Position numbers and translations under genes: made by a program. Shown piece by piece: positions 29,329 to 60,149 of a stretch of DNA of 64,000 nucleotides. This DNA comes from Spirochaetia bacterium. Lineage in GTDB: Bacteria > Spirochaetota > Spirochaetia > DSM-2461. The stretch's first letter is position 1, and each line of letters begins with the position of its first letter. Under the pieces are notes generated by a model. That model ran no database searches. It worked only from the letters and a program-made list of their open reading frames with translations, and was not told where the DNA came from. The DNA lies in the NCBI GenBank assembly GCA_963668315.1, contig OY764216.1, positions 3,264,001 to 3,328,000 of the forward strand. Reading direction: 5' to 3'.

Positions 29329-29333
29329 AGTTT

Positions 29334-36730: not shown

Positions 36731-37647
36731 GATTTGGTGGTCATCAAACATTCTCAATACGAGATGGTTGGTTGTATAAAGGTCTTGAATTACTAATGGA
36801 TACAACAGAAGCCTGGAAGTTAACGGATGATTTTGCCATGGATTATTTGGGTGTTGGTCGAAATATGGCTAAATCTATCAACCACTGGTTGCTTGCGACA
36901 GGTTTAGCAGAGAAAGCAACTGAGACTAATGAAAAGGGCAAGACTATCATAAAAAAGGACTTAATTCCGACTCCTCTTGCTCAAATAATATGGAATAAAG
37001 ATCCCTATTTTCTTGATTTAAATACATGGTGGTTTCTTCATATTAATCTCATTCATAACGAAAGTGACGCAGCTTCATGGAATTGGTTTTTTAATAATTT
37101 CTCTATGGAGAGATTTCAAAAAGAAAAATGTGTTAAGAGTTTGGAGCGATATGAGAAAATCCATTCATCAAGAGTTCCTTCCATTACGACCCTTGATAGG
37201 GATATTAGTTGTTTATTAAGCAGTTATTCTGTAGATATCCCTTCCATGAAGAAAGATCCGGAAGATGAGATTGATTGTCCTTTCCAAGAATTAGGATTAA
37301 TGAAGTCATTTAGACATTCCGGATTTTTTGAATTAAATAGGAACAGTAAGGATATTTGTCCAGAAGTCTTTTTATATGCATTAACATTATCGAATCCATC
37401 AGATAGTGATATTAAGAAAATTGATATTCCTTTCTTTGATATGATCAATAAGCAAAGTAGTCCTAGTAAGGTTTTTCTTCTTGGGAATGAAGGTGTTTTT
37501 GAGCTTTTATTAGCATTGGAAGCAAAATCTTCAGATATATCGATTCATGGTTTAGCGGGAGAGAGACTAATTCAGTACACCAATAATTCCCCTATTCATT
37601 GGATAAAACGTTATTTTGAACAAGACTCAGAGAGAGAAGCTATATGA
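36727..37647 (+). CDS. sspB: DUF4007 protein (SspB-like)
   Basis: FGGHQTFSIRDGWLYKG, LGVGRNMAKSINHWL, DPYF, DPEDEIDCPFQELGL. Confidence 0.85.
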   Translation: MRFGGHQTFSIRDGWLYKGLELLMDTTEAWKLTDDFAMDYLGVGRNMAKSINHWLLATGLAEKATETNEKGKTIIKKDLIPTPLAQIIWNKDPYFLDLNTWWFLHINLIHNESDAASWNWFFNNFSMERFQKEKCVKSLERYEKIHSSRVPSITTLDRDISCLLSSYSVDIPSMKKDPEDEIDCPFQELGLMKSFRHSGFFELNRNSKDICPEVFLYALTLSNPSDSDIKKIDIPFFDMINKQSSPSKVFLLGNEGVFELLLALEAKSSDISIHGLAGERLIQYTNNSPIHWIKRYFEQDSEREAI

Positions 37648-40600
37648 TTGCAGAAAAAGAAAGTTTAAACATTCAAGATATATTAAGATCTATCAATATT
37701 TTATATGATGCAGAAAACGCACAGCGAATTGCTCATTTTCAACCGACAAGCAAAGCTGTTGTTCTTATAGAGTCATTACTAGGTCTTAGGAAGGACAAAG
37801 CCTTTTTTATATCTGCTCCTTATGGTTCTGGTAAGTCTATTACTAGCACATATTTATTACATAGTATTGAAAACCGAAAAGAGTCATATGATGTTCTAAA
37901 TTCATTACATGATCGCGTTATTAACGTTTCACCGGATGCGGGGACACTATTAAAATCTCGTTTAACACAAGGAAATAAAGGAATTGTGATAGCTCTTCAG
38001 GGTTATCAGGAAAATCTGAATGATGCTATAAAACAAGCGATAATACATAGTCTAGAAAGGCATAAACTAGATTCAAACAAAATCCTAGAAGGATTGAAGT
38101 TCAACAGTCTAAATAATGCTATTCAAAGTATAATAGAGGTTAGATCTAAAGGATTCGATAGTATCTGTATTATTTGGGATGAGTTTGGACGTCATATCGA
38201 GAGTTTGATTGAAGAAGGACAGTCATCTCAGTTAAATCATCTCCAAACCCTTGCTGAGTTTGCTAGCCGTTCGGATGTTCCTTTTACATTGGGACTTCTT
38301 TTGCATCAGAACTTAATGAATTATGCAGGAAAAACTCCTCAGTCAGTTAAACGGGAATGGAAGAAAATAGAAGGACGTTTTGAAACTATCCAATACATTG
38401 ATGATTCTAAGGAAATTTATTCTCTTATTGCTAATGTGATAGAGAATATAAAAGAGGATGATTCAGAAAAATTTATTTCTTTTCCCCAAATTGATGTCTT
38501 CCATCAGAATAAACTTTTCCTTGAATTCTCTAAAGAACAATTATTTGAAATCTTCAAAAAGGCTTTTCCATTATCTCCTGCCGCTCTATTTATATTGCCA
38601 AAATTATCTTCTCGTATTGCCCAGCATGAGAGAACACTCTTTACTTTTCTCAATGCGGTAGATTTTAAGCAGAGAATCCACGTCGGTGTCTTATACGATT
38701 ATTTCTCCGATGCCATGAGTCAAGATACAGCTGTAGGTGGAGTTTACCATCAGTGGTCCGTAACAGAGAGTGCTATTAGTAAGGTTGATGATCCTTTTGA
38801 AATTGAAGTATTGAAAACTCTCAGTTTGTTGAACGTTTCTACGGCAATTGATAAGGGGAGAGTCTCAAAAGATTTATTATCTGAATCATTACAGCAAAAT
38901 GGTTTTGATGATCATGCAATTAGTAGTGTAGTTGATCGTTTACTAGAGAAAAAACTACTTCTTTATAGAAAGAATACTGATTCTATTACAATTTGGCATG
39001 GCACTGAAGTGGATTTATTCAGCCGATTGCGAGATGAGAAGGATCGTTTATCTAGTTCTTTTGATGTAATCGAATATATCGAGACCCATTTTGAGCCAAC
39101 ACACTGGAAACCCGTTGAATATAATAATCAGAATAAGATTCATCGTTATTTTAGAAGCGAGTACATTGGATTTGAAAAATTAAAGATTCTTATTAGCGAA
39201 GGAATTGATAGTCTATTCAAAAATAATTACGACGATGGACGATTGTTTTTTTATATTCCTTCATCAGACGATGAATTAAAGATGGGGAAAAACCTTATTT
39301 TTGAAGAGGGACAGCACAATCAAATCCTATGGGCAATTCCTCATAATAAGTTAGATATATATGATATAGCCCTTGAAGTTGCAAGCTATACAAATATGCT
39401 TGAAGACACATCTTTATTAGAATCTGATCCTTTTATCGAAGATGAAATTAATCAACTATTAGATGATTCAATGGAGTATCTTCAGAAGCTTGTAGATACA
39501 GCAACTAAGCCATCTAAGAAAGGGCCAATTTTTATATACAGTAATGATGCAATTGCGATTTCTTCACCCCGAGAGTTACGTAATTATCTTTCTTATATCA
39601 TGAATGATGTATTTAATCTGACTCCAATTTTAAATAATGAGATGATTGTTAAGCAAAATCTCCGTTCTAATCTTGTTAATGGTAGAAAGAAATTACTCTT
39701 TGCTATTATGGATAATACGGGAGCAAAGGATTTGAATCTTGAAGGATTTACTCCCGATGTTTCTATGTTTAGATCCTTACTCTTAAATTCTGGTTTATAC
39801 AGGCAGGTAGGAACAGGGGAGGGTGTTGATACTTGGGTTTTTGCTAAAACATCAGAAATCAGAGATGAAGGTCTAAAAGCTGTCTGGGAAGAACTACAGA
39901 GATTCTTTACAACACCTGGTGAGAAAAAACAATTTTCTCAATTGCTTGATAATTTAAAAAGACCTCCCTATGGATTAAGAAAAGGCGTTATACCCATTCT
40001 AATTGCCAGTGCCTTAAGAGCCTTTCCGAGTGTCATTTCTATAACACATATGAAAGAAGGATATTTAAGCGATATACTTCCTTCTGATTTGGAGAAAATT
40101 TGCGAGTCTCCAGAAGAGTATCTTTTAGCTGTGGAATCTTTAAATGATACGAGAACTCTTTTATTAACAAAATTATATGAGTTGTTTGCTCCTGAAGGAA
40201 ATATCAGTTCCCGTGAAATGGATTTAATTAGAAAGACATATGACGCTATAGAAATGTGGAAGAGTAACCTTCCTGAAGCCTCTATGACTTCTCGACGAAT
40301 ATCTCAGGATACTAGGATTTTTCAAGAGATTATTCGATCGATAAAAGATCCTCGTAATACTTTCTTTCAAAAGATCCCGAGTAAGTTCAATAGTACTGAT
40401 ATCGATTATCTTTTTTCTGCTGTTAAGAAAAGCAAAGAGGAGTTAGAAGGGATAACTGAAGCTTATTACGACTTAGCAGCAAAAAGTATTCTGAGCACCT
40501 TACAAATGCCTTCTTTGGAAATATCCGGTGTTAGTCATGCTGTAGGGACCTGGGTCACGTATCTACCGGATGAACTCTTCAAACGGTTTAAAGACTCTAT

Positions 40601-40934
40601 TGCTAAAGCCTTATTAGTCCGATTAAGAATGCCCTATGAAGATCATCGATTATTGATAGATTCCGTTGCTGGGTTATTGATCGGAAAACCCGTTAGCAAA
40701 TGGGATGATAGTACATTTACTGTTTTCGAAAGAGAGTTTCAAGAGAACATTCACCGTATAGAAGATTATGTACTGAATCATACTCCCCAGGGGCATAAGG
40801 GTAAGGCACATATGAATCTTGCTAATTTAGCACTAACCAGAATTGATTCCCTTTATAGGAAAGTCTGTGATCTTATCGGAGATGAAGAAGAAGCAAGACG
40901 TCTTATAAATGAGAAGTTAAATGGAGGAATATAA
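37644..40934 (+). CDS. sspC: Large P-loop ATPase (SspC-like)
   Basis: Walker A APYGSGKS, Walker B IIWDEFG, EWKKIEGRF, QHERTLFTFL, PPYGLRKG. Confidence 0.85.
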   Translation: MIAEKESLNIQDILRSINILYDAENAQRIAHFQPTSKAVVLIESLLGLRKDKAFFISAPYGSGKSITSTYLLHSIENRKESYDVLNSLHDRVINVSPDAGTLLKSRLTQGNKGIVIALQGYQENLNDAIKQAIIHSLERHKLDSNKILEGLKFNSLNNAIQSIIEVRSKGFDSICIIWDEFGRHIESLIEEGQSSQLNHLQTLAEFASRSDVPFTLGLLLHQNLMNYAGKTPQSVKREWKKIEGRFETIQYIDDSKEIYSLIANVIENIKEDDSEKFISFPQIDVFHQNKLFLEFSKEQLFEIFKKAFPLSPAALFILPKLSSRIAQHERTLFTFLNAVDFKQRIHVGVLYDYFSDAMSQDTAVGGVYHQWSVTESAISKVDDPFEIEVLKTLSLLNVSTAIDKGRVSKDLLSESLQQNGFDDHAISSVVDRLLEKKLLLYRKNTDSITIWHGTEVDLFSRLRDEKDRLSSSFDVIEYIETHFEPTHWKPVEYNNQNKIHRYFRSEYIGFEKLKILISEGIDSLFKNNYDDGRLFFYIPSSDDELKMGKNLIFEEGQHNQILWAIPHNKLDIYDIALEVASYTNMLEDTSLLESDPFIEDEINQLLDDSMEYLQKLVDTATKPSKKGPIFIYSNDAIAISSPRELRNYLSYIMNDVFNLTPILNNEMIVKQNLRSNLVNGRKKLLFAIMDNTGAKDLNLEGFTPDVSMFRSLLLNSGLYRQVGTGEGVDTWVFAKTSEIRDEGLKAVWEELQRFFTTPGEKKQFSQLLDNLKRPPYGLRKGVIPILIASALRAFPSVISITHMKEGYLSDILPSDLEKICESPEEYLLAVESLNDTRTLLLTKLYELFAPEGNISSREMDLIRKTYDAIEMWKSNLPEASMTSRRISQDTRIFQEIIRSIKDPRNTFFQKIPSKFNSTDIDYLFSAVKKSKEELEGITEAYYDLAAKSILSTLQMPSLEISGVSHAVGTWVTYLPDELFKRFKDSIAKALLVRLRMPYEDHRLLIDSVAGLLIGKPVSKWDDSTFTVFEREFQENIHRIEDYVLNHTPQGHKGKAHMNLANLALTRIDSLYRKVCDLIGDEEEARRLINEKLNGGI

Positions 40935-41746
40935 TGGCAACATTAGAAGAAGCATTAGCTACAGTAGACAATAAAGAATATAGACATATCATTCCTGTTT
41001 CTGGAGGAAAAGATTCTGCAGCGTTAGCCATCTATATGAAACAGAAATATCCCCAGATAAATGCAGAGTATGTTTTTACTGACACAGATTGTGAACTCCC
41101 CGAGACTTATGAATATCTAGAGCGATTACAGGGGTTACTAGGAAAAGAAATACATAGAACCAATGCTCTTGATACATTAAATATAGATAGAAAACCAGGG
41201 CGCAAGGCTTTTGAGATTTATCTGAATGAACTCTATGGTGGATACCTTCCTAGTCCAAGATCTCGTTGGTGTACGGGAGTTCTAAAGATTAAACCTTTTG
41301 AACAGTGGGTAGGGAATACCACAGCTTTTAGTTATATCGGTATACGAGGTGATGAAGACAGAGAAGGTTACGTTCCCAAAAAGCCACCGAAACTTTCAGA
41401 GAAAGCCAATATTATTCCTGTTTACCCCTTTAAAGAAGATGGTATCACGCTGAGTGATGTTAAGGAGATCTTGGAAGAAGCGGGAATTGGATTACCGAAG
41501 TATTACGATTGGAGAAGTCGTTCCGGTTGTTATTTTTGCTTTTATCAGCAAATAGGGGAGTGGCAGGGGTTAAAAGAAAATCATCCTGATCTGTTTGAGA
41601 AAGCAAAATCTTTTGAAAAAACACGTGGTGATAAAAAATTTACTTGGGTAGAAGGACGATCTCTGGTCGAATTAGAAAAAATGAAGGAGCGTTTCGCTGT
41701 AGCCGATATGGATGAGACTGAAGGCTGCGCGATTTGCCATTTGTAA
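40934..41746 (+). CDS. sspD: PAPS-reductase-family protein (SspD-like)
   Basis: PP-loop SGGKDS, RWCT, RSRSGCYFCFYQ, C-terminal CAICHL. Confidence 0.88.
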   Translation: MATLEEALATVDNKEYRHIIPVSGGKDSAALAIYMKQKYPQINAEYVFTDTDCELPETYEYLERLQGLLGKEIHRTNALDTLNIDRKPGRKAFEIYLNELYGGYLPSPRSRWCTGVLKIKPFEQWVGNTTAFSYIGIRGDEDREGYVPKKPPKLSEKANIIPVYPFKEDGITLSDVKEILEEAGIGLPKYYDWRSRSGCYFCFYQQIGEWQGLKENHPDLFEKAKSFEKTRGDKKFTWVEGRSLVELEKMKERFAVADMDETEGCAICHL

Positions 41747-41958: not shown

Positions 41959-43496
41959 ATGAGTCAGCCATTTAAGCATAGTGCGGATAGTCTGCTTAGT
42001 TTTTTTTCACAACCTGGTCGCGGCTTCTACGTCCCTTATTATCAAAGAAATTATTCCTGGGATGAGGATAATGCAAGTAAACTTATATCAGACATTATTG
42101 GAGGGGTTAAGAGAGCTCTGAATAAACCCAACAATAGTATTTTTCTTGGTACAGTTATTCTGCATGATGAAAACAATGTGGAGGTGGGAGTGCATACTGA
42201 CACACCTAATCTCTTAACAAAAGTTTCGAATGTTGTTGATGGTCAACAACGGATTTCCTCTTTAGGAATGCTCGCTTGTACTCTTAGTTATATAATTCAG
42301 GATACGGTTCAAGAATTGAATCAATATATATCTTCTGCATCAGAAATTGCTACTTTAGTGCAGGAACTTCAAAATCAAAAGCTAGATCTGTTTGATTTTT
42401 TCTGTGTCGAGATAAAAAAAGGTGGAGCTCAACCAAATCTCAAACCACTAATTATCAGAGCTGGTGATGTGACATCAAATCCTGTATCTGATCAATGGAC
42501 ATTAGCAGGTAGTGGGAATCATTTTTATCGATCAAATACAGCTAGCTTTTTTTCTGAATTTATCAGTGGGAATCCTTTTCTTAGTATAAATAAAGATTCT
42601 AGAGTTGAGTGCGTAGTAAATACTTATATTGATCAAATTAAAAACGAACTTGGATCGGTTGATTCGGTTTTCGCTCGAAGTTTATTAAGTGCTAATAGTA
42701 CTCAAGGTGGGAGTCTCAATAACTTTATGGATTATCCGCCTAATCTTAGTAATATAAATAATCTGCCAAATAATGAGCAAAAAGTATTTTACAGTGGAAT
42801 GATGCTTCTAGCTATTTGTCATTTCTTAAAAAGTGCTTGTCATTTTGTAGTTATTGAATGTCAGGATGAGGGTATAGCATTTGATATGTTTCAATCTTTA
42901 AATGCAACAGGAACCCCTTTGACCGCATTTGAAGTATTCAGGCCAGTTATAGTAAAGAAATATGGAACAGGTTATGCTAGTACTATCAAGGACGAAGTTG
43001 ATCGAATAGAGAGCGTATTTGAAAAAGAAAGTACAGCTAGTGGTAAAGAGGAATTAACTGATAAAGTGATTGCTTCAGCCGCTCTTGCATATGATGGTTC
43101 AATCATAAGTAATAGATTCAGCGAAGAACGTGATTGGCTTATTGATACATTTCAGCCGCTAAGTGGGCAAAATGCTAAAGATTTTGTATGTTGTATTGCT
43201 AGTCAAGCTGAATATCGAGATAATATTATTCGTCCCAGAAAATCCCCAAAAAACTCTCAAAACATCAAACTTGTTAATCACTTGTTAAGTCTCGGTTTGA
43301 ATCCTCAGCAGGCTGATATGTCTGCATTCTGTATTTTTTATCTTCGAGATGCTGGACATAAATTTGCTCATAGCGTTATCAGTGTTTTTTATGCTAAACT
43401 TCTTTCATCTCAAGGGAACACTACTAAGGTAGCCTCTGCAGCTAATGAGTTTTTATCGATCTGTAAAGCAACAGCAGCCTTTTTTACCCTTTGGAT
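41959..43496 (+). pseudogene. sspE: SspE-like effector, 5' part (DUF262/ParB-like NTPase domain), interrupted by insertion
   Basis: VPYYQRNYSW, VVDGQQR, FQSLNATGTPL; frame runs into an IS end at 43497. Confidence 0.85.
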
Positions 43497-43943
43497 TATG
43501 CTGAGCCCACAGGGTAAACCAGTACTTTAAATATTTAAGTTGGAATTCCCGATTCATGATAATATGAAAAGGGAGAAAATCAATGAAGAGAAAATTCGAT
43601 GAAGAGTTCAAAGCGAAAGTAGCACTGGAAGCGTTAAAGGAAGAAAAAACTCTTCAGGAACTGGCTGAGGAATATGAAGTACATCCGAACCAGATCAGTA
43701 TGTGGAAAAAACAGCTTATGGAAAATGCCAGTTCCCTCTTTGTCCGAAAGAATAAAAAAGACAAAGAACTGGAAGAAATGAAGAAAAAAGAGCAGGAACT
43801 TTTCAAGCAGCTGGGTGAAGCTAATTATGTGAACGAATTTCTAAAAAAAAAGTACAAACAACTATACGGGAAGGATTACAAATGATAGAGCCGGATCATA
43901 GGAAATTGTCTGTCCGGAAGCAATGTAAAATTCTCAATGTCAG
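43497..43943 (+). mobile_element. IS3-family element, truncated left copy (IRL + orfA 43583..43885 + start of orfB)
   Basis: Matches 51241..51687 (identical orfA translation); ends abruptly at the IS256 terminus. Confidence 0.9.
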
Positions 43944-45291
43944 GATAGTGTCCAGCCATGTTCGCAACTTTCCTTTCAAGAAGCCATCAAAATTCCCCAT
44001 TAGGCAGCCTGACCTAATTTAATTCTTTGTTCATCAATCGATTTCTCACTGATATACCGTTTTCCCGAAGCCCAGTCTTCTGAGTATTCAATCAGGTAAC
44101 AACAGACTAGTCTAAGGTAGGAGTCAATACTGGGAAAGATTCCCACAACACGAGATCGTCTACGGATTTCCCGATTCAATCGTTCCAGTTGATTGGTAGA
44201 AGCAGTTTTCCGGCTGTCTATTTCTGAGAATTCATAATACTGAAGAGAGTCTTCTAATCCGTCTTCAAGACAAGTCATGGACTTCGGAAATTGTTCTTCA
44301 AATTCCTCTATAATTCGGTATGCATATTCACGGGCCGATTGGGAGTTCGGTTGATTCCAAATCTGCTTAATTCTGCCGGCAACAGCTTCTTTATCCCTGG
44401 CAGGAAGATGGGACAGGATGTTCCTCATAAAATGGATTTTACAGCGTTGCCAGGAGCAACCGATGAGTTCCTTTCTTATGGCGGCTTGAAGTCCCAGATG
44501 GGCATCAGAGACACAGAGCCAGGCATTTTTAAATCCTCTTGCTTTAAGAGACCTGAACAGTTCGGTATAAGTGCTTTCTGATTCTTCCTGCATTGGTTCA
44601 ACAGCAAGGATTTCTTTGAATCCTTGTGAATTAACACCAGATACAACCATCACAGCCATATTTCTCACTCTTCCGTTATACCGGATCTTTTCATAGAGGG
44701 CATCAACCCAGATGACAGGATATTCTGAATCAAGAGATCGATAGCGGAATTCATCTACCTGTTCATCAAGTCCCTTATTGATTTCAGAGACCTGGCTGGC
44801 TGAAATATTTTCAATGCCCAGACTCATAGCCAATTTCTCAATCTTTCTGGTTGAAACACCGTTGATAAATGCTTCCTGGACAACCTGAATCAGAGCTTGC
44901 TCGGATCTCTTCTTTTCTGTTACAAAGAAGGGAATATATCCGCCTTTTCTGAGCTTGGGGACAAGGAGATACAGTGTTCCAAGACGAGTATCAAATCGGC
45001 GTGGTCGATATCCAGAAAAATGGGTGGATCTTCCCGTAGAATGAGACCCCTTTTGAGCTCCTACTTTATTCGCCGCTTCTATTTCCATAAGCTTTTCCAG
45101 TAGCCATTTCAATAAGCTGAAAATGGGATCCGGTTCCGAAATGAATTGGAGTAGCATTTTTTCCAGATTACCATTATCATTTTCCTTAGCCATCGTTTTC
45201 TTCCTCCATGGTTTTAGTTGTGCATTACCATTCTGGAGAATTCGATGGCTTCTTTCAATAATTAAAATTGCGAACTTGATTGTACGCTATC
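43944..45291 (-). mobile_element. IS256-family element
   Basis: Imperfect 24-bp IRs GATAGTGTCCAGCCATGTTCGCAA / TTGCGAACTTGATTGTACGCTATC; flanks not duplicated. Confidence 0.88.
44000..45193 (-). CDS. IS256 (Mutator-type) transposase
   Basis: VPKLR, GVSTRK, WVDALYEK, VSDAHLGL, WQRCKIHF, TNQLERLNREIRRR. Confidence 0.92.
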   Translation of the reverse strand: MAKENDNGNLEKMLLQFISEPDPIFSLLKWLLEKLMEIEAANKVGAQKGSHSTGRSTHFSGYRPRRFDTRLGTLYLLVPKLRKGGYIPFFVTEKKRSEQALIQVVQEAFINGVSTRKIEKLAMSLGIENISASQVSEINKGLDEQVDEFRYRSLDSEYPVIWVDALYEKIRYNGRVRNMAVMVVSGVNSQGFKEILAVEPMQEESESTYTELFRSLKARGFKNAWLCVSDAHLGLQAAIRKELIGCSWQRCKIHFMRNILSHLPARDKEAVAGRIKQIWNQPNSQSAREYAYRIIEEFEEQFPKSMTCLEDGLEDSLQYYEFSEIDSRKTASTNQLERLNREIRRRSRVVGIFPSIDSYLRLVCCYLIEYSEDWASGKRYISEKSIDEQRIKLGQAA

Positions 45292-46056
45292 ACTCCAGAT
45301 CAAATAGTTCAGTTATATAATGATGATAAAGATCATTTCTTACATATTTTAGATAACTTATTTGTCCCTATTTTAGAAGAACTTGAGTATGAAGTCATAA
45401 AACCAATCGCCGAAGGTTCAGAAATAATTCATACTAGAATTATCAATAATTTGATTGAATCAGATTTAGTTTTTTGTGATATGTCTATTTTAAACCCTAA
45501 TGTTTTTTATGAATTAGGGATAAGAACGGCAATTAATAAAAAGGTATGCATTGTAAAGGATGATAAAACCATCAAAATCCCATTTGATACAAGTTTGATA
45601 AATATTTTTACCTATGATTCAATGTTGTCCCACTGGAAAATGGACGAAATCAAGAAGACTTTAAAAGATCATATAATTGCAACAGAAAAGCATACATCAA
45701 ATGCGTTATGGGATATTTTTGGTTCAAAGACACAGAAATTATTAAATTCTGCAGTAGATAATATAAAAAATAAGAATGAAACAGATCCGAATGATCAAAT
45801 AGATCAAGTTAGAGATGGAAAAGAAAATATAGAAGTTGAAATTAAGAAAGAAAAAACAGAAAAAAGAGCTACAGTTTTCCGGGCAAAAGCTCATAAATGT
45901 ACGAGCTGTGGATATAGCTTCTTACTTGATGATAATGACTTTATAATGGCCTCAGCACTTCGAGTTTCAATTTCTGGATTATATAGTCCTATGACTGATA
46001 TTCCTGAATCCAATGTTGTTCGTTGTCCTAAATGTGACAATATTGATGTACTATAA
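45292..46056 (+). pseudogene. Cassette 1: 5'-truncated TIR/nucleoside-deoxyribosyltransferase-like protein with C-terminal Zn ribbon
   Basis: SDLVFCDMSILNPNVFYELGIR and IPFD motifs; CTSC/CPKC; the listed start codon lies inside the IS256 IR. Confidence 0.6.
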
Positions 46057-46058
46057 CC

Positions 46059-46156
46059 GTATAACAATCGCTTGAAGCAGTCAGCCCTATCGTCATGCTT
46101 TTTGCGAGGCAAAAATCACGCCGATGTACGGTCTGCAGCTTAAGCGGGCGTTATGT
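46059..46156 (+). other. attC site 1
   Basis: R'' GTATAAC just after the stop, inner arms CGCTTGAAGCAG / CTGCAGCTTAAGCG, R' GTTATGT. Confidence 0.8.
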
Positions 46157-46215
46157 TTACAAGAGAAAAATTTAAGAATATAATATCGGATAGGATGAAA
46201 TAAGGAGTATCCGAT

Positions 46216-47160
46216 ATGAATGAAAAAATACTAAAGAGCATCATCGGAAAGAAAAAAGAACTCGATAAATATCGTCCCTTAAGTCCATCAATCTCAAGAA
46301 AATTAAAAGAAGAACTAGAACTTGAATGGACATATAATTCCAATGCAATAGAAGGAAATACTTTAACTCTCCAGGAAACACAAATTGTACTGAATTACGG
46401 AATGACAATAGGTGGAAAATCCGTAAATGAGCATCTCGAAGCTATTAATCATAAAAAAGGAATAGAATTAATAGAAGAGATAATACAAAAGAAAAAAGAT
46501 CTAGATGAATCATTAATCAAAGAACTACATTATTTAATATTAAAAGGAATTGATGATAGAGAAGCAGGACATTATCGAACGCAAAATGTAAGGATTATGG
46601 GAGCTTATTTATTTCCGCCTCAGGCCATAAAAGTCGAAAAGAAAATGGAAGAATTGATGTCCTGGTATTATGAAAATAAATTTAAGATGGAAATTCCAAT
46701 TTTAGCTGCCGAAATGCATTATCGATTTGTCTGTATTCATCCTTTTATTGATGGAAATGGAAGAGTTTCCCGATTAATCATGAATATGATATTAATGTCA
46801 AACGGATTTCCGCCTGCCATAATATTAAAAGTGGATAGAAGAAAATATTATCGAGTATTGAATGATGCTAATCAAGGAAAAGAAGATTCATTCATTAATT
46901 TCATAGGAAAATCTATAGAAAGAAGTCTTATCATATATTTGAATAGTGTAAAAGAAAATAAATCAGAAAGAGAAGGATTTATCAATTTACGAGAAGCAGC
47001 CAAATATTGTGATTACTCCCAGGAATATTTATCTCTATTAGCAAGAAAAGGAAGAATCTCGGCCATAAAACTTAATAAAGAATGGGTAACAACTCGAGAA
47101 GCCATTGAAGAATATCAAGAGCAGATGAATAAGAAAAACAATAAGAAAATCCAAAAATAA
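46216..47160 (+). CDS. Cassette 2a: Fic-domain protein with C-terminal HTH
   Basis: SNAIEGN autoinhibitory motif, HPFIDGNGRVSR, C-terminal LREAAKYCDYSQEYLSLLARKG. Confidence 0.9.
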   Translation: MNEKILKSIIGKKKELDKYRPLSPSISRKLKEELELEWTYNSNAIEGNTLTLQETQIVLNYGMTIGGKSVNEHLEAINHKKGIELIEEIIQKKKDLDESLIKELHYLILKGIDDREAGHYRTQNVRIMGAYLFPPQAIKVEKKMEELMSWYYENKFKMEIPILAAEMHYRFVCIHPFIDGNGRVSRLIMNMILMSNGFPPAIILKVDRRKYYRVLNDANQGKEDSFINFIGKSIERSLIIYLNSVKENKSEREGFINLREAAKYCDYSQEYLSLLARKGRISAIKLNKEWVTTREAIEEYQEQMNKKNNKKIQK

Positions 47161-47362
47161 AGAAAAAGAGTAAGAATAGAATAACTTCCGAAATGTCCAT
47201 TGAATATACTATAATGAGCACAGAAATTAATGGAAAATACTTGTTGAAAATATATTAAATAATCTATAAATACTTGTTTGATAATAGTATATAATGTATT
47301 CTCTTGTAGATGTTTAATGAATATATATATCATATATAAGAAATATTTAGGATGTAAACTTA

Positions 47363-48148
47363 TTGAAAATTACTAGATATATAACATACTTTATTATATT
47401 TGTTGTTATAACGATTTGTTTTTACTTATATGACTATCATTATTATAATTCATTAGTACAAACACTGAGTAATCACGTGGAATTTTGGGGTGTAATTACA
47501 AACGTTAATAGTGAAGAATCAGATGGAAGGAACAATAAGGTATTAACAACTATATCTTATGAATATAATGGAAAAAATGATTACATCAGTTTTTCATTTA
47601 ATTCTTTTCTAAGTAGATATCATTTATTATATGTTCCTGATTATAAAACTGGTTATAAATTAGTCATATATGAAAATAATGAAATCAATTTTTCAATTCC
47701 AGAACCATTTATTAAGACAAAAAAAATTGAAATTTTACGGAATTATATTAGTATTGTTTTCTTTCTAATGATAATTTCAATGATCATCACAAGAAGGATA
47801 AACTTAGAAATTGATAAGAAAATTCTTGGAGATAGAATTGAGATATATTATCAAACAAAAGCATTTATAATTAAAAAAATAAAAACTATAGACTTAATTT
47901 ACCTTAAGAATGAATTGTATCAAATAGTTGATTTCTCAAAACTCGAATCAAATAATTTTCTCTGTTATGGAATAAGAAATCTTTCTTTGAAGGTTGAACT
48001 ATATAAAGAAAAAGAAAAATACTTGATTTCAAAATCAGATGCAGATGAAGTTATTCAAGAGTACATTATTATTGATTCAAAAGAAAAATACATTGAGATA
48101 TTAATTAATGTTTTTAAAGGGGACTATGTCTTTAATCGTAAAACATAA
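47363..48148 (+). CDS. Cassette 2b: hypothetical membrane protein (2 TM)
   Basis: Two hydrophobic segments; TTG start; stop codon lies in the attC2 R'' box. Confidence 0.6.
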   Translation: MKITRYITYFIIFVVITICFYLYDYHYYNSLVQTLSNHVEFWGVITNVNSEESDGRNNKVLTTISYEYNGKNDYISFSFNSFLSRYHLLYVPDYKTGYKLVIYENNEINFSIPEPFIKTKKIEILRNYISIVFFLMIISMIITRRINLEIDKKILGDRIEIYYQTKAFIIKKIKTIDLIYLKNELYQIVDFSKLESNNFLCYGIRNLSLKVELYKEKEKYLISKSDADEVIQEYIIIDSKEKYIEILINVFKGDYVFNRKT

Positions 48149-48244
48149 CAAACATTTGAACGTTGACAGCCCTACTGATCACGGTTTCTGCTTACGCACA
48201 AACCGCGCCAGCTTAACGGTCTGCAAGTTAAATGGGCTTTCTAA
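48143..48244 (+). other. attC site 2 (R' mutated to TTTCTAA)
   Basis: R'' ACATAAC, arms CATTTGAAC / GTTAAATG, shared CAGCCCTA...CGGTCTGCA core. Confidence 0.75.
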
Positions 48245-48280
48245 AGAATAAAGGTAAGAGTTAAAATAAAAGGGGGAAAT

Positions 48281-49969
48281 ATGAGTATAATTCATATAAA
48301 TCAAATAAAATCATATCTGGAAAATAATGTTTTTGATAAAATTGATATCACGGATTTAGGTGAAAATCTTTCCCCAGAAGATAAGAAAAAACAATTACTA
48401 ACAAGAAGTTTGTCAGCGTATTGTATACAGTGCCTTGTTGATGAACCAATTGAAAAAATAACAAAATATGTAATTGATGGTTCAATGGATAATGGGATTG
48501 ATTGTATTTTTTATAGTGATACATCAAATATACTATATATTTCTCAAGCCAAATGGCACGATAGTGGTAATAAGACAATAGATAAAGGCGAAATACAAAA
48601 ATTTATTAAAGGAATTAAAGATCTTCTTAATAGTCGGTACGATAAATTTAATGAGAAATTACAGTCTTTTAAGAAAACAATTGATGCGGCACTTCAACAT
48701 CCTAATACAAATATAAAGCTACTAATTTCATATTCTACTACAAATGATTTACCTGAAGAATTGCATGAGGATATTCAAGACTTTTTAATTGAAATGAATG
48801 ATACATCTGAAGTAATAAGCTATGAGGTTTTAAACCAATCTTTTCTACACCGTTCAATTGTTAGGGGAACAGATACATCTCCAATCAATGAAGAACTAAT
48901 ACTAGAAAATTGGGGATATATCTCAGAACCATATGAAGCTTATTATGGAATTATAAATGCTTCTATTCTATCTCGGATATATGAAAAATATGAAAGAAAA
49001 TTATTTGTACCAAATATTAGATCGTTCCTAACTGATAGCGAAATTAATACAAGTATTGAAGAGACTATAAATTCAAATCCAGAATCATTCTTCTATTTTA
49101 ATAATGGCATCACTTTCACGACTGAAAGTATTACAAAGAAATTAACAAGTGGGACAAATCGAAATACAGGTATTTTTGATTGTATAAATCTTTCAATAAT
49201 TAATGGTGCACAAACTGTTGGTTCAATTGCTAGAGCAGGTAAAAAAGATCCTAGAAATCTTGATAATACAAATGTTTTAGTTAAAATCATATCACTAAAG
49301 GATGCTAAGGATGATTTTCAGTCTAAAGTTACAAAAGCTGCAAATACTCAAAATACAGTAGGAAGTAGAGATTTTATTACTCAAGATCCAGAGCAAGAGA
49401 GATTAAAATTAGAATTACAGATTGAAGGAATTTATTATTCATATAAGAGAGGGGACCTTTTTTCAAGCGAAAGCATTGGGTTTGATTTTGAAGAAGCAAT
49501 TTCAACCCTTTCTAATTATAAAGGTGATATAAAATTAGTAACCCAGGCAAAACGAGAATTAGGAGTTCTGTGGAAAGATGTCACGAAGGCTCCTTATAAA
49601 ATTTTATTCAACCCAACGCTATCAAGTATTGAACTCTGGAATATTGTCCAGATACAAAGAAAGATTGATAAATTATTAGAAGAAAAAAGAAATGATGCTG
49701 TTGAAAAGAATGCTTTATTTCTCATCCATGGAAATAAATTTCTGAGTTTCTTAACTATTGAAAATATAATTTCTGAGAATAATATTAAAAAGGAATTTAT
49801 AGATATTGAAACATTAAATGAAAAAATAATGATAAGTCTTGATGATTCGATTTCCCGATTATATATTTCCGTGGAAAAGATTTATCCAGATGATTATTTA
49901 GGAAATTTATTCAAAACAGTTTCAAAGTGTCAAACTTTATATGAAGATATAAATGAGAAAAATCTTTAG
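48281..49969 (+). CDS. Cassette 3: AIPR family protein
   Basis: DGSMDNGID, NIRSFL, FFYFNNGIT, IINGAQT, NTQN. Confidence 0.85.
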   Translation: MSIIHINQIKSYLENNVFDKIDITDLGENLSPEDKKKQLLTRSLSAYCIQCLVDEPIEKITKYVIDGSMDNGIDCIFYSDTSNILYISQAKWHDSGNKTIDKGEIQKFIKGIKDLLNSRYDKFNEKLQSFKKTIDAALQHPNTNIKLLISYSTTNDLPEELHEDIQDFLIEMNDTSEVISYEVLNQSFLHRSIVRGTDTSPINEELILENWGYISEPYEAYYGIINASILSRIYEKYERKLFVPNIRSFLTDSEINTSIEETINSNPESFFYFNNGITFTTESITKKLTSGTNRNTGIFDCINLSIINGAQTVGSIARAGKKDPRNLDNTNVLVKIISLKDAKDDFQSKVTKAANTQNTVGSRDFITQDPEQERLKLELQIEGIYYSYKRGDLFSSESIGFDFEEAISTLSNYKGDIKLVTQAKRELGVLWKDVTKAPYKILFNPTLSSIELWNIVQIQRKIDKLLEEKRNDAVEKNALFLIHGNKFLSFLTIENIISENNIKKEFIDIETLNEKIMISLDDSISRLYISVEKIYPDDYLGNLFKTVSKCQTLYEDINEKNL

Positions 49970-50074
49970 AACAATAAAATGCACCTGACAGCCCTACTGT
50001 CACAAATACTGCTTAACGCTTCGCGGCAGTATTTGCGCCAGCTTCACGGTCTGCAGGTGATTTTGGCGTTAGCC
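49966..50074 (+). other. attC site 3
   Basis: R'' TTAGAAC, arms AAAATGCACCTG / CAGGTGATTTT, inner hairpin CAAATACTGC...GCAGTATTTG, R' GTTAGCC. Confidence 0.82.
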
Positions 50075-50090
50075 ATATTCAAGAAAAGGG

Positions 50091-50119
50091 TTGATGATAC
50101 TATCAAATGATACTATCAT
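50091..50119 (+). promoter_or_regulatory. sigma-70-like promoter overlapped by two TGATA-C-TATCA palindromes
   Basis: TTGATG-N17-TATCAT ending 6 bp before ATG 50126; palindromes at 50095-50105 and 50108-50118. Confidence 0.65.
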
Positions 50120-50125
50120 GATAAA

Positions 50126-51088
50126 ATGAAACCACCATATGATATTACCCCGACAATACTCGAACTCTATGGAAAAATAACTGAAGCATTAGGAATATGC
50201 CAAAGTTTGATGCTTGTAAAACCAGAAGCAAAATTAAGACGACAAAATAGAATCAAGACCATTCAATCATCCCTTTCCATCGAAGGAAATACTCTCAATA
50301 TAGAAAATGTAACGGCAATTTTAAATAATAAAAGAATAATTGGACCAGAAAAAGATATTCTTGAAGTACATAATGCGATTTCCGCCTATGAATTATTAAC
50401 CAATTTGAATAAAAATAAAGAGAATGATTTTTTAAAGGCTCATAAGTTATTGATGGATAAACTAGTAAAAAATCCAGGACAATATAGAAGAGTACAAGTT
50501 GGAATTATGAGAGGCGAAAATGTCACTCACGTCGCGCCTGGACCAGATATGGTTCCTAGTTTAATGAAAGATCTATTTCAATATTTAAAGAATGATAAGG
50601 ATCTTGAGATCATTAAAAGCTGTGTATTTCATTATGAAATGGAATTTATCCATCCATTTGAAGATGGTAACGGAAGAATGGGAAGATTTTGGCAAACAAG
50701 AATATTAATGAGTGTAAATCCAATCTTTGAATTTGTTCCGATTGAAGAATTAATAAAGAATAATCAAAAAGAATATTATGAAGCATTGTCGCAAAGCGAC
50801 AATACAGGAAAATCGACGATATTCATAGAATTTATGTTAAATGTCATAAATCAATCATTACGTGATACAATAAAAGAATCAAAACCACAAAATCCAAAAT
50901 TTAAAAAAAGATCAGCAATTGCTTTATCAAAATTAGATGATTGGTTTGATAGAAAAGAATATATGGAAATGTGTCATGGGATTTCCACGGCAACAGCAAG
51001 TAGAGATTTAAAACAATTATTAGAAGAAAAAAGAATTGAAGAAAGAGGGAAGGGGAGGATGACCCAGTACCGTAGAAGAAATGGCTAA
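50126..51088 (+). CDS. Cassette 4: Fic-domain protein with C-terminal winged HTH
   Basis: SLSIEGN, HPFEDGNGRMGR, GISTATASRDLKQL. Confidence 0.9.
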   Translation: MKPPYDITPTILELYGKITEALGICQSLMLVKPEAKLRRQNRIKTIQSSLSIEGNTLNIENVTAILNNKRIIGPEKDILEVHNAISAYELLTNLNKNKENDFLKAHKLLMDKLVKNPGQYRRVQVGIMRGENVTHVAPGPDMVPSLMKDLFQYLKNDKDLEIIKSCVFHYEMEFIHPFEDGNGRMGRFWQTRILMSVNPIFEFVPIEELIKNNQKEYYEALSQSDNTGKSTIFIEFMLNVINQSLRDTIKESKPQNPKFKKRSAIALSKLDDWFDRKEYMEMCHGISTATASRDLKQLLEEKRIEERGKGRMTQYRRRNG

Positions 51089-51191
51089 CAAGCATTTGAA
51101 ACTGACAAATCTTTTTGTCATGCAAATTGCGTTTCGCAATTTACACGCCAAACCCTGCGGGACAGATTTGCAGCTTAAATGGGCGTTATCT
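51083..51191 (+). other. attC site 4
   Basis: R'' GGCTAAC containing the stop, arms CATTTGAAACTGACAAATCT / AGATTTGCAGCTTAAATG, R' GTTATCT. Confidence 0.82.
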
Positions 51192-51326
51192 ATACAAAAG
51201 GTAACAACCATAGACCAACCCTACAATTAGAGAAGGACATTATGCTGAGCCCACAGGGTAAACCAGTACTTTAAATATTTAAGTTGGAATTCCCGATTCA
51301 TGATAATATGAAAAGGGAGAAAATCA

Positions 51327-51629
51327 ATGAAGAGAAAATTCGATGAAGAGTTCAAAGCGAAAGTAGCACTGGAAGCGTTAAAGGAAGAAAAAACTCTTCA
51401 GGAACTGGCTGAGGAATATGAAGTACATCCGAACCAGATCAGTATGTGGAAAAAACAGCTTATGGAAAATGCCAGTTCCCTCTTTGTCCGAAAGAATAAA
51501 AAAGACAAAGAACTGGAAGAAATGAAGAAAAAAGAGCAGGAACTTTTCAAGCAGCTGGGTGAAGCTAATTATGTGAACGAATTTCTAAAAAAAAAGTACA
51601 AACAACTATACGGGAAGGATTACAAATGA
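51327..51629 (+). CDS. IS3 transposase OrfA
   Basis: [10 protein letters not shown]...[21 protein letters not shown]. Confidence 0.9.
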
Positions 51630-52459
51630 TAGAGCCGGATCATAGGAAATTGTCTGTCCGGAAGCAATGTAAAATTCTCAATGTCAGCAGGACGGCTTAT
51701 TACTATGATCCCAAACCGGAAGATCGGAAAGATATAGAAGAGAAGATTCGCCTTAAAGAACTTTTCATTCAGATCCCATTCTATGGTTATCGAAAAATGG
51801 CTGAGGAATTGAATTCAGAAGGCTATAATACAAGCAGAAAGCGAGTTCGCCGTCTTATGAGAGAATTAGGCTTACGGGCTATTTCTCCCAGAAAATTTAC
51901 CTCTATCCCCAATAAGCAGAATCCCATCTATCCTTATCTTTTAAAGGGAAAAAGAATCCGCTATCCCAATCAGGTTTGGGCCACTGATATCACCTATCTT
52001 AAAATGGATAAGGGATTTGCCTACCTTGTAGCCATAATGGACGTCTGGAGCCGTAAGGTATTAACCTGGAAGATCTCTACTACTTTGGATTCTGAGTTCT
52101 GTATCGCCGCCGTAAAGGAAGCTATGGATAAATATGGAACGCCGGCGATCTTTAATACGGATCAGGGGTGTCAATTTACTTCATATGCTTTTTTGAAACC
52201 GCTCCAGGAAGCGGGAGTCAGAATCAGTATGGATGGTCAGGGAAGCTGGCGTGACAACATCTATGTGGAACGTCTTTGGCGTAGTTTAAAATACGAGGAT
52301 ATCTATCTCCGATCCTATGAGAATGTCCGGGAGTTGAAGAAAGGGATACAGAAATACTTTCGCTTCTACAACGGGAAAAGATTTCATCAGGGGCTTGGTT
52401 ATTTAACTCCTGATGATGTTTATGAGTCCTTCCAGATTGGGAAGGATCAGGCAGCTTGA
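51626..52459 (+). CDS. IS3 transposase OrfB (DDE)
   Basis: [33 protein letters not shown]. Confidence 0.92.
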
Positions 52460-52519
52460 TATCGGAGGATTCCACTTATTAATTTTGAAAAAGTGGTTTG
52501 ACACGAGGGCTCATCATAG

Positions 52520-53320
52520 ATGGGTGGATTGCAAGGACGCTTTCCTGATCAAATATATAGGAAACTATTTCAATCTACATTAAATATATCAGTCTCTAAT
52601 GGAACTACAAACCAAACAGATAACTTTGTAAAGAAAATATTTCGCAATGCACTTCAAGACGAAGGTATTTATGATACTAGAAATACTTCTAATTCATGTA
52701 ATCTATGGGTGAATAAGGCTAAGGCAAATCCATGGTATCTAAAAAAAACAGTTTGTCGATTTGCCTTATTCATTTCATTTAATGATGCAGCACCAGATTT
52801 AACACAAACGAATGAAGGACTTTTTACTAATGGTATGGCTAATTCAGCTAATATGCTCAATTGTCAATCATGGCATTCAAGTGATTTTGAAGTTATTGAG
52901 CATGTAGCAACACGAGATCAACCAAGTGTAACTAAGTTTCCTACTCATTTCGATACTTCTATATATCCAGGAAATACCTCGGTCGTGGATAAAATTGGAA
53001 ATCTCACGTTATTATCTACACCAGTAAACTCTTCTATCTTTTCTGAATGGCCAGATAAGGTCTTTTATTATTGGAGTTTGACTATGCCACAAAATACGGT
53101 AACGGGACCAATCGGTGCTACACTACAGTCCTCATTAGGTATCACAAACCTTCCACCAAGTCTCTCCACTCTTACTGCAGCTTCTAATTATTTACCTCAC
53201 TTGGCTCCTTTAGCTTTTCGGGGAGTAAAAGGGTTGAAATGGGACTCTGCATTTATTGACAGACGTTCTGAGCACTTATGTGAAAGAGTATTTAATGAGA
53301 TGGATAATTGGCTGAAATGA
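52520..53320 (+). pseudogene. sspE: SspE-like effector, 3' part (DUF1524/HNH-like nuclease domain)
   Basis: IEHV...IGNLTLL...N motif; in frame with the 5' part once the insertion is removed. Confidence 0.82.
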
Positions 53321-53430: not shown

Positions 53431-55248
53431 CTATTCATTTTGGTGCTTGAAATACCAGACCCTTTGACTGCTTAGTTCTATCTTAATCCGCCAGAATTCC
53501 CCCGGCTTTAAGTCGGGGGAATCATGAATAAAGAATGTCACTTTTCCAGACAATTTATGGATTTTGATTTCATCAACTTCATTTATATCACCATAAAGCA
53601 AACCGGCCACTCCAACATACATTCGTAATACGGGATCAAGCGAATCTAATTCATCACGTTTTAGATATAATGCCTGATCATCTAGCGTTCCAATCCTTTT
53701 ATCTTGATTAATGACTACACAGCGCTCTTCAATTTCTCTTGAATCGCCTATTTTAAATAGTTCTGTTAATGATTCTTGTTGACCCGCTTTATAGGATCCA
53801 AAAAAGGTTTTCATGTCTTTTTGAAGATTTATGCTTAACTGAGTAAAAGGTACTTTCTTTTTAAAATTGGCTAACCCTAAATAGACAATAAGGTCTTCTC
53901 TTCTATTTATATAAGCTTGCTGTAAGCTTTCCTGGCCATAGCGCTCGATAAACCATTCCTGCAATCTTCGACCATTGAGTTTTATGTTATCTTTGAGATC
54001 TCTACCTTCAGGATATTCCTTATCGCTTGGTTCTCTTCCCAGAAAGAGAAGCTGTTCCCAATAAGCTTCCAAAGATTCTTTAAATTGTTGATACAGAAGA
54101 TCCTTTTTAACTGCATCTCTTGCGTCTTTTGATGGATAAATATGAAGGTTAAGTTGGTTCCAATTTACCTTTCTTCTTTGTCTTGTAGAAAGAAAATCCT
54201 GAGCATCCTGTTCATTGGGAAATAAGAAGAAAATCCCTGGTGATACGGCATGGGCGGAATGATTCAGAACTTCTTCAATAAGATCTTGCACTTCTTCATG
54301 TTTAAAGTATTTTTGGAATGTCCCTCGACTTGTGAGGAAGCCATCACGATAGGGACGGATATCTTTCGCTGTAGGAGCCGTATCTGTAACAACCGCAATG
54401 CATAGGATCTTATTCGTTAATGAGAAGGCTTTTTGAATAGCCTCTATGCGTTCTGAGGGATCTTCAATAACATTTAGTACAAACCCTAGATTAACAACAT
54501 CAGATTTAATGAGAGGCGTTTTTGGGGCATAGACCGGATCCCAACCTATTGCCTGGTATCCATTATAATCTAGGGCTCTTACATCATCTCCAAGACCGCA
54601 GCCGTAATCTAAAAATGATTGATTCTTACAGAGTAGATTGTGTTTTAGGAGTAACTGTAAAGGCCTAGAAAAATCTGATCTTGACATAGCTGTTTTATGT
54701 CTATCAATTATTTCTTTCTGTTTTACTTCTTTTTTGGGGGCTGAAAATCCTTCTATTAGAGTATGTCCCTGATATACTAATCCTTTTTCTGCAAGAAGCT
54801 CATCCCAGAATTTTTTGAAACCAATTTTCTTCGATTGAGCATAACAGTCATATTCCTCTAGTTTTTTTGTAAGTTCTAACCATTCTGAATATTCTGATCT
54901 TGACGGTGAAATCATCGTCTCTTTTCGATGGAGTATAGGTGGGTTTTCCTGTTTAGAGTAATCTATCGTTCGGTTTTTTCCTGTACTTAAATCAATGGTA
55001 TAGGATTTCTTTAGTGAAGGGTGAGGATCGCTAAAAAAATCCGGATAATTTAAGAAGGAGACTTTAAACTGGTCAAAGAAGAATTTTATTAGCGTTGTTT
55101 CATTCGGCTGTCCTATAGGTTCAAGAAGTTGAGTAAGAAGGGGAGACTCATTACAAAGGTCGGGCCATAGGATGTATAGGTTTTTACCGACTTTCTTCCC
55201 GAAGGGGAGAGATTTTACTGCAGAGAGATAATCTTCAAAGGAGAGCAT
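53431..55248 (-). CDS. DNA phosphorothioation-associated putative methyltransferase
   Basis: NPPILHRKE, RHKTAMSR...SRP, LDYGCGLGDD, GWDP, NLGFVLNVIEDP, TSRGTFQKYF. Confidence 0.85.
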   Translation of the reverse strand: MLSFEDYLSAVKSLPFGKKVGKNLYILWPDLCNESPLLTQLLEPIGQPNETTLIKFFFDQFKVSFLNYPDFFSDPHPSLKKSYTIDLSTGKNRTIDYSKQENPPILHRKETMISPSRSEYSEWLELTKKLEEYDCYAQSKKIGFKKFWDELLAEKGLVYQGHTLIEGFSAPKKEVKQKEIIDRHKTAMSRSDFSRPLQLLLKHNLLCKNQSFLDYGCGLGDDVRALDYNGYQAIGWDPVYAPKTPLIKSDVVNLGFVLNVIEDPSERIEAIQKAFSLTNKILCIAVVTDTAPTAKDIRPYRDGFLTSRGTFQKYFKHEEVQDLIEEVLNHSAHAVSPGIFFLFPNEQDAQDFLSTRQRRKVNWNQLNLHIYPSKDARDAVKKDLLYQQFKESLEAYWEQLLFLGREPSDKEYPEGRDLKDNIKLNGRRLQEWFIERYGQESLQQAYINRREDLIVYLGLANFKKKVPFTQLSINLQKDMKTFFGSYKAGQQESLTELFKIGDSREIEERCVVINQDKRIGTLDDQALYLKRDELDSLDPVLRMYVGVAGLLYGDINEVDEIKIHKLSGKVTFFIHDSPDLKPGEFWRIKIELSSQRVWYFKHQNE

Positions 55249-57050: not shown

Positions 57051-57857
57051 TTAAAGAATCAGTTCTGTAGAAGCCATCCGGACATGCTCCGGAGAGACCG
57101 TGTGCTGCTCGTCCATAACAGCCGCCAGCATGGCCGTTTTTGCAATGAGATTGGCGCGGCGTAATATCCCGCCGGAACTCTGATGTATGGCAAAGACCGT
57201 CTCTGCCGGGAATATATTCTGTTTCAGTCCAGCCAACTCCAGGTGGTGTTTCAGGTATTCCTCCATCACCTCTTTCTTAATTGCTTCCAGATGGTTTCGC
57301 CCCAAGACCCGAGAGGCTAAGGGCCGAGCCGCCGATGTCATCAGATGATCCATGAGCCCCTCCTGGCCGCAGAGAATTACCGGCATAACAGGCCTGGAGT
57401 CATATTCGAATTGGAGAAGCGTATGAAGTTGTGAAAAAACATTGCTCTTGAAGAGATGGGCCTCGTCAATAATAAGAATCGGGGTGACATTGCGGGAGGC
57501 GATTTCACTGATCTGGTCCCGAATCAGTTTGACCATAAAGGCTATCTGATAGGAGGAAAACTCCACTCCGAAAGCCAACAGAAGATGGCGGTAGAGTTCC
57601 ATCAGGCTGTACTGCCCGCCGATCAGGGAGATGATCTGATACTCGCTGGTTCTGAACTGATGGGCCATATATCGCAGAGAGGTCGATTTTCCCGATCCCA
57701 CGTCGCCAGTAATCAGGGAATTGGCTTTCTGTTCCACAGCGAAGGTTACCCGCTGCTTCAGAGGGGCTAAAGCGGGAAGCGGGTAGAGATCCCTGACGGG
57801 AATATCCTGCAGAAAGGGTTCTTTCTTTAATCCGAAAAAATGCCGGATACTTTCCAT
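57051..57857 (-). CDS. ExeA-family AAA ATPase (transposition helper)
   Basis: FGLKKEPF, GDVGSGKS, IIDEAH, LCGQ. Confidence 0.88.
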   Translation of the reverse strand: MESIRHFFGLKKEPFLQDIPVRDLYPLPALAPLKQRVTFAVEQKANSLITGDVGSGKSTSLRYMAHQFRTSEYQIISLIGGQYSLMELYRHLLLAFGVEFSSYQIAFMVKLIRDQISEIASRNVTPILIIDEAHLFKSNVFSQLHTLLQFEYDSRPVMPVILCGQEGLMDHLMTSAARPLASRVLGRNHLEAIKKEVMEEYLKHHLELAGLKQNIFPAETVFAIHQSSGGILRRANLIAKTAMLAAVMDEQHTVSPEHVRMASTELIL

Positions 57858-59122: not shown

Positions 59123-59153
59123 TAACGGCTCCTTACAAAATTCTCACTTAAAT

Positions 59154-59465: not shown

Positions 59466-59632
59466 TGTAGAATCCAACATTAATCTATCAGATTATTCTA
59501 TCAATATTCCACAATAAAATATTTTTATACTTCATTTTCACAAAATAAATTATCGATAAAAAAGGGATAGCCTATTGTTCCTGCAAGAACGGCTATCCCA
59601 ACCCATAAATCATAATTTATTTTCGGACGGAT

Positions 59633-60121: not shown

Positions 60122-60149
60122 ATGGAAATAAAACGTTTTAGGAGGTTTT

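Follow-up and report, generated by a model that had tools for sequence, protein, structure and literature searches.

How does a run of integron cassettes come to lie inside a defence gene? The question is raised by a stretch of 64,000 nucleotides, hereafter the window, from a Spirochaetia bacterium (GTDB lineage Spirochaetota; Spirochaetia; DSM-2461), which corresponds to positions 3264001-3328000 of C1, a single 5.62-Mb contig (OY764216.1 of assembly GCA_963668315.1). The genome has three matches to FlaA, a spirochaete marker, compared with none in 14 control genomes, which points to the same affiliation. Here the gene sspE is cut in two, and between its halves stand insertion sequence (IS) elements of the IS3 and IS256 families enclosing a series of cassettes and attC sites. 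A first-pass annotation, made from the sequence alone, read this structure as an IS3 composite transposon. Our analysis points instead to a relocated piece of a group of clustered attC sites without integron integrases (CALIN) with a pseudo-composite structure, which most likely left a donor array as a circle and joined an IS3 element already resident in sspE. The features that delimit the block, in window coordinates, are the following.

41959..43496, forward strand: sspE 5' part, codons 1-512, GmrSD_N/DUF262 with DGQQR and the first part of the C-terminal domain
43494..43496, forward: GAT target duplication, left copy
43497..43943, forward: IS3 stub, bases 1-447 of 1,278, with the left inverted repeat, orfA (43583-43885) and the start of orfB
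43944..45291, reverse: complete IS256-family element of 1,348 bp, transposase 44000-45193, its two flanks unlike each other
51241..52518, forward: complete IS3-family element of 1,278 bp, orfA 51327-51629, orfB 51626-52459, inverted repeats 26/40
52519..52521, forward: GAT target duplication, right copy
52520..53320, forward: sspE 3' part, codons 513-778, GmrSD_C/DUF1524 HNH region

The two GAT copies are indeed present, as the first-pass annotation had it, and 9,022 bp separate them. Its further claim that two IS3 copies bound this segment stands only for the right-hand side, where the element is complete; on the left just 447 of 1,278 bp are present, followed by an IS256 element that had been overlooked (families by NF033516 for IS3 and NF033543 for IS256). 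The stub is identical in sequence to the corresponding part of the right copy, and a BLAST search across the genome did not find the remaining bases 448-1278 of the left one. Nor is the GAT pair diagnostic of a composite transposon, a lone IS3 yielding the same duplication; all three of the other identical IS3 copies in the genome carry duplications of their own, of 3-4 bp. IS3 elements usually end in TG...CA, and all the ends seen in this genome have TA on both sides, outside TG...CA; a run of A9G precedes the orfA/orfB overlap.

The IS256 element at the left boundary is what links the block to a second site. Its right flank, ACTCCAGA, is also the left flank of an identical IS256 copy in the same orientation at C1:3350031, 42 kb downstream. 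Among the 14 IS256 copies in the genome, seven have their own 8-9 bp duplication and seven do not, and a comparison of all their flanks gives this one cross-match, for which the probability by chance is about 1e-4. The coding sequence tells the same story from another side. The gene to the right of the window IS256 begins in mid-domain, so that cassette 1 is without its 5' end, and the start codon and first codons of that gene are found at C1:3349984-3350030, immediately left of the donor-side IS256. Encoded there is a motif of the CF-I-I-M-P type, present within the first 45 residues of 86 among 119 homologues of this gene, and the spacing implied from it to HFxH, 22, is that of 75 of the 83 homologues in which it is measurable. 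The donor side further carries seven attC matches, all on the same strand (C1:3339-3349 kb), that stop just before the start of the cassette-1 gene. Because the ACTCCAGA flank is shared and the missing start of cassette 1 is found there, at the end of a seven-attC array, the region of C1:3350031 is most likely the donor site of the cassette block.

The right end of the block provides a second, less stringent link, through the following feature.

51185..51240, forward strand: orphan left end of an IS481-like element, 56 bp, between attC4 and the right IS3, 96% identical to C1:3135521-3135576

An IS481-like body without a left end lies past the donor scar (C1:3356773-3357943), collinear with the block's right end, and a complete IS481-like element stands beside the integron integrase gene, intI. 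This collinearity supports the donor link and falls short of proof. Farther along, C1:3358232-3430568 holds two pairs of genes encoding 2,700-3,470 amino acids, pairs of tyrosine recombinases and a cluster resembling pilus or type II secretion genes.

The consequences are best seen by writing out the order in the assembly (A) and the order before relocation (B), in which D is the sequence to the right of the donor-side IS256.

Order A: sspE5' - IS3(1-447) - IS256 - block - IS3 - sspE3' ... cassette-1 start - IS256 - D
Order B: sspE5' - IS3 - sspE3' ... cassette-1 start - IS256 - block - IS3(1-447) - IS256 - D

In order B every target duplication is paired and the donor array runs unbroken through 11 attC sites, leaving one deletion junction, between the IS3 stub and a reversed relative of IS3. 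The donor-order block has a single IS3 left end and lacks a right end, so that its movement as a unit by IS3 transposase is excluded. The 7,744-bp circle that it would form likewise has no IS3 right end beside its one left end; an IS3 already in sspE must therefore have supplied the right end as well as the GAT pair.

The first-pass reading would instead have two complete IS3 elements, with part of the array between them, jump into sspE by true composite transposition, after which IS256-driven deletions trimmed the left IS3 and emptied the donor. Classical composite transposons, of the Tn5, Tn9 and Tn10 type, do share with this locus the outermost left and right ends of one IS within a target duplication; they differ from it in that here the left element is a stub and the donor-order block lacks an IS3 right end. 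The outermost ends are those of directly repeated IS3, the 3-bp duplication is like that at other copies, and IS256 deletions look common, half of the 14 copies having no duplication of their own. However, the scheme requires a donor IS3 upstream of cassette 1, and none is present in or upstream of the donor array (3317-3350 kb), while the block begins on the left with an IS256, and the partner of that element's duplication is at the donor. It also requires two independent deletions that left exactly complementary pieces at the two sites. Composite transposition is thus quite unlikely; what stands of the first-pass claim that IS3 mobilized a piece of an integron array is that a piece of an array was moved by IS elements.

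For the relocation itself we favour the following route. A lone IS3 would first have inserted into sspE, giving the GAT duplication; the split and the duplication are observed, and their place at the start of the sequence of events is inferred. Independently, the last gene of cassette 1, in the downstream array, would have received an IS256 insertion, with ACTCCAGA as its duplication (the flanks themselves being observed), and another IS3 would have come to lie just past attC4 at that array. The segment IS256 - cassettes - IS3(1-447) would then have been released from the array as a circle of 7,744 bp, either when two direct IS256 copies recombined with each other or through intramolecular transposition of IS256, with one IS256 staying behind as the scar that is seen at the donor. 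A single homologous crossover within the 447 bp shared with the sspE-resident IS3, for which 43497..43943 would be the crossover interval, would have integrated the circle and produced stub - IS256 - cassettes - full IS3 within the old GAT pair. The same product could arise if a circle of 42 kb came out through IS3 homology and went back in through IS256 homology, or from unequal crossovers. In any of these events sspE is left cut and sspABCD open, with three whole cassettes readdressed and no gene gained.

Homologous recombination is the likelier driver for the last step; recA is present in the genome and sufficient. Transposase could in principle take its place, the circle joining the resident IS3 through a like-end reaction in the manner of IS26 translocatable units. 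The form of the product, a unit joined to a resident IS with no new duplication, is that described for such units (PMC7986276), and the shared homology of 447 bp is short; against this, the same source, in the portion consulted here, ties the like-end route to IS6/IS26 and assigns IS3 and IS256 to copy-out-paste-in transposition. Targeted integration of this kind seems very improbable indeed. A bolder proposal is that the block is a live, integrase-independent shuttle, the 447-bp direct repeats being able to release the 7,744-bp circle again for landing wherever one of the 14 IS256 copies or one of several IS3 copies lies. We regard this as unlikely. If it were true, runs of integron defence cassettes would move between arrays and defence islands as IS26-like units made by elements of the IS3 and IS256 families, both chromosome orders would coexist in the population, and a transposase-assisted targeted step would become possible.

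All of this presumes that the assembled order is real. The alternative is a mis-join: in reality a single IS3 would interrupt sspE and the downstream array, with its 11 attC sites, would be whole, the repeats having been misresolved or two co-occurring strains mixed. Identical IS3 and IS256 repeats are interleaved here, the alternative order pairs every duplication, and the runs that hold this stretch amount to 436-1,273 million contig letters, far exceeding the genome, so that the source was probably a mixed sample. On the other hand, C1 is one 5.62-Mb contig, and the repeat that had to be spanned is just 447 bp. An internal control comes from other repeats: of six identical 3,182-bp elements, five are still flanked by 5-bp duplications of their own, and cross-matches among them are absent; seven of the 14 IS256 copies and all three other identical IS3 copies likewise keep theirs, a pattern that random joining would not have produced. 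Because the 3,182-bp elements and the other IS3 copies retain their own duplications, the assembly must have resolved repeats far longer than 447 bp, and this control favours order A. A mis-join is therefore judged unlikely. The 3,182-bp element itself (window 59466-62648 and five other places) encodes an rve transposase with a Mu-type C-terminus, an AAA ATPase-like partner and a 162-residue leader gene product, and a related element lies at window 57051-59480.

Contig depth in three sequencing runs of one sample is 216, 87 and 249 for the cargo, compared with 222, 71 and 222 for one flank and 253, 80 and 277 for the other, a ratio of about 1x; the cargo is thus present in single copy and free circle is not abundant. 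The assembly likewise contains the cargo just once, and the unit at no other place. The run contigs, which can reveal presence only, hold neither a joint for an empty sspE nor one from the IS256 right end to IS3 at 440-448. Two joints that they do hold, 45291-46245 and 45292-51087, most likely derive from IS256-type ends beside paralogous sequence elsewhere. The run of a second sample was too fragmentary to use, with a depth mostly below 20 outside IS copies.

Several observations weigh against the relocation as we describe it. Orders A and B are identical in k-mer content up to k=450, an ambiguity inherent to interleaved repeats. The run contigs break at IS copies and reach just 28-30 bases into the elements, under the 31 bases that a contig joint requires to be bridged, and the stub/IS256 junction is not among the 32 contig pieces listed out of 202; moreover, these sequencing runs may be the assembly's own sample. 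The link at the right end is not unique, in that C1:3162221-3163847 holds another IS481-like remnant whose left end is missing. No intermediate of the route is observed, and among the relatives searched none has a matching sspE or array, so that an outgroup or a strain with the intact allele is lacking.

That sspE was once a single gene is clear from its homologues. Its halves, of 512 and 266 amino acids, sum to 778 and match positions 2-512 and 511-776 of the 776 positions of the SspE profile PDLC02790, and when the two are compared separately with the 29 best non-self homologues among 425 matches, they abut with zero gap or overlap in all 29, at 64-74% identity for the first half and 62-76% for the second. 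The first-pass proposal that the two parts rejoin as one ORF of 778 codons is accordingly upheld. The tested homologues continue uninterrupted through codon 512/513, whereas the gene here is cut at that point and does not encode a full-length SspE in which GTPase and nickase are coupled; the frame of the 5' part extends 11 codons into IS3 to a stop at 43530. The 3' part matches the structures 7dri and 6jiv. In the Streptomyces protein the C-terminal domain spans residues 332-771 and DNA binding involves R404/R408 (PMC9646914). The break falls inside this domain, between the DNA-binding region and the HNH region, and because it parts the two, the split SspE is probably inactive, a judgement that rests on the position of the break.

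The remainder of the locus, which is situated in a low-GC island, is as follows.

35552-36730, forward strand: sspA, open frame, PADLOC SspA 7e-122
36727-37647, forward: sspB, open frame, PADLOC SspB 3.5e-98
37644-40934, forward: sspC, open frame, PADLOC SspC 2.8e-138
40934-41746, forward: sspD, open frame, PADLOC SspD 4.6e-95
53431..55248, reverse: putative methyltransferase associated with DNA phosphorothioation (TIGR04096), downstream of sspE

By the PADLOC profiles sspA, B, C and D and sspE are all present in one locus, and sspABCD (35552..41746) is the phosphorothioation module. As far as PMC9646914 describes it, the SspABCD-SspE system has the same five genes in the same order, with the DGQQR and HNH regions; what differs here is the cut in sspE at codon 512/513. 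Insertion inside sspE within a defence island, as first annotated, is borne out. The accompanying idea that one effector was replaced by a set of cassettes is unsupported: IS3 disrupts sspE in order A and in order B alike, and the chromosome had the cassettes beforehand. A comparison with related strains was also made, and among the relatives searched it revealed no intact allele. With the N-terminal half of SspE as query, weak GmrSD-type matches appear in 10 of 60 relatives (best 1.5e-8) and no orthologue; a search of the relatives' contigs confirmed none of 60 candidate stretches; and a DNA search of three same-genus genomes returned short pieces of cassettes or IS elements only.

Where, then, does the integron machinery reside? 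The window has no integron integrase match, in agreement with the first-pass annotation, but the genome does contain one: intI at C1:3134145-3135380, an open and intact-looking frame of 411 codons, 175 kb away and the sole match in the genome over the TIGR02249 cut-off. The gene is present in 24 of 38 genomes of the family, and a search of wider genome contigs yielded distant integrases only. For attC sites, a hand-written pattern that had caught three of the four window sites was replaced by a covariance model built on eight sites (four from the window and four sisters), used in place of IntegronFinder. With 150 of 304 candidates scored, it gives 34 matches, eight being the training sites and 26 further ones. 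The sister sites sought in response to the first-pass annotation are thus found: 11 beside intI (3140-3159 kb), seven at 3339-3349 kb and four in the window, with 12 elsewhere (4547-4548, 4639-4644, 4865-4872, 5021-5028, 2135 and 2959 kb). Several of these remote matches are clustered, giving further CALINs in this genome.

The intI-linked array (C1:3136859-3159093) has PADLOC matches to Dsr1 (7e-77), PDC-S34 (3e-189) and PDC-S01 (1.5e-99), along with Mrr/IrrE and Schlafen-domain genes, and IS3 and IS256 copies sit inside attC sites at 3144541 and 3150794. At both surviving left ends of the IS481-like element (C1:3135521-3136852 and window 51185-51240), the element starts on, or immediately past, a site resembling a GTT crossover; one of these sites is a putative attI at 141 bp from intI, the other is attC4. 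The first 21 bases of the element are able to form a small hairpin, and a second IS481-like type likewise follows attC at C1:3147880 and 3159206; a preference of these elements for integron sites is possible. The identical 56 bp also stand before an unrelated gene in one relative. At the end of the intI-linked array, C1:3160514-3163847 comprises a 407-bp copy of the beginning of cassette 2 (95% identical), an IS256-type element and an IS481-like tail, an order that mirrors the two ends of the cargo, as if a homologous block had once been present and then been deleted.

The cargo itself consists of the following.

45292..46056, forward strand: cassette 1, 3' part of its last gene, nucleoside 2-deoxyribosyltransferase-like, with weak PF05014 and PADLOC TIR-effector matches
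46058..46158, forward: attC1
46216..48148, forward: cassette 2, a Fic protein with a C-terminal helix-turn-helix (46216-47160, HPFxDGNGR) and a 261-residue protein (47363-48148) with no family match
48142..48246, forward: attC2, degenerate, the G of the GTT crossover triplet replaced
48281..49969, forward: cassette 3, AIPR-family protein, PADLOC AbiU 5e-30
49965..50076, forward: attC3
50126..51088, forward: cassette 4, Fic protein, PADLOC SoFic 3.6e-47, far under the NCBIfam SoFic cut-off
51082..51193, forward: attC4, 87-91% identical to attC of the intI-linked and donor arrays

The four attC sites named at first pass hold up, attC2 without the G of GTT included: conserved R and L boxes align across them, and their bottom strands fold with z of -5.8, -3.3, -5.7 and -5.3 (attC1-4). 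Between the Fic gene and the 261-residue gene of cassette 2, neither the pattern nor the covariance model found an attC. Both Fic genes have an intact-looking HPFxDGNGR motif. Only profile resemblance points to a role of the cargo in defence, and the SoFic and AbiU matches lie under the NCBIfam equivalog cut-offs. A promoter-like site (11/12) is present at 46156-46184, though a scan finds 42 sites compared with 42.9 in shuffled sequence, which is chance level and leaves IS-driven expression of the cargo or of 3' sspE unsupported.

The structure is an IS-made CALIN of known type, pseudo-compound in form, in a spirochaete. For CALINs in general, 38% have a neighbouring IS, and IS-mediated rearrangement has been proposed as a route to them (PMC4889954), an argument that in the account given there depends mainly on co-location statistics. 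The present locus shares with those described two or more same-strand attC sites, an intI that is not nearby but elsewhere in the genome, and an IS at the border; it differs in its landing site inside a defence gene and in keeping the donor scar as well as the landing site, which lets both breakpoints and the route be followed base by base. That IS-flanked integron loci could be either moved or mis-assembled has been pointed out (10.1101/2025.06.18.660453). By IS family the block is not a translocatable unit of the IS26 type, the elements being IS3 and IS256, not IS6/IS26. With the pseudo-compound transposons of that family it shares a direct IS - cargo - IS arrangement that is not moved as a unit, and with the translocatable units it would share, as its structure suggests, a one-IS circle that joins a resident IS and an outer duplication that stems from an earlier single insertion (PMC7986276); interleaved IS3 and IS256, host recombination as the likelier driver and a cargo of integron cassettes set it apart. 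A caution for annotation follows: an IS - cargo - IS structure, even one framed by a perfect target duplication, is not necessarily a composite transposon. Biologically, the event would be one at the level of the strain, a knock-out of SspE by one IS3 together with three cassettes readdressed rather than gained. Within a partial coverage of the literature, we find no description of cassette arrays that had been moved into a defence gene. Sedentary chromosomal integrons that store defence cassettes (10.1101/2024.07.02.601686) have in common with this genome an intI-linked array with PADLOC matches; the words AIPR and Fic are absent from the main text of that source.

Upstream of the ssp genes, the island at 25175-35451, in which no complete known defence system was matched, encodes two WYL regulators, a MIT_C/BrxL-like protein, a DEAD/ResIII helicase and, directly before sspA, a GHKL ATPase.

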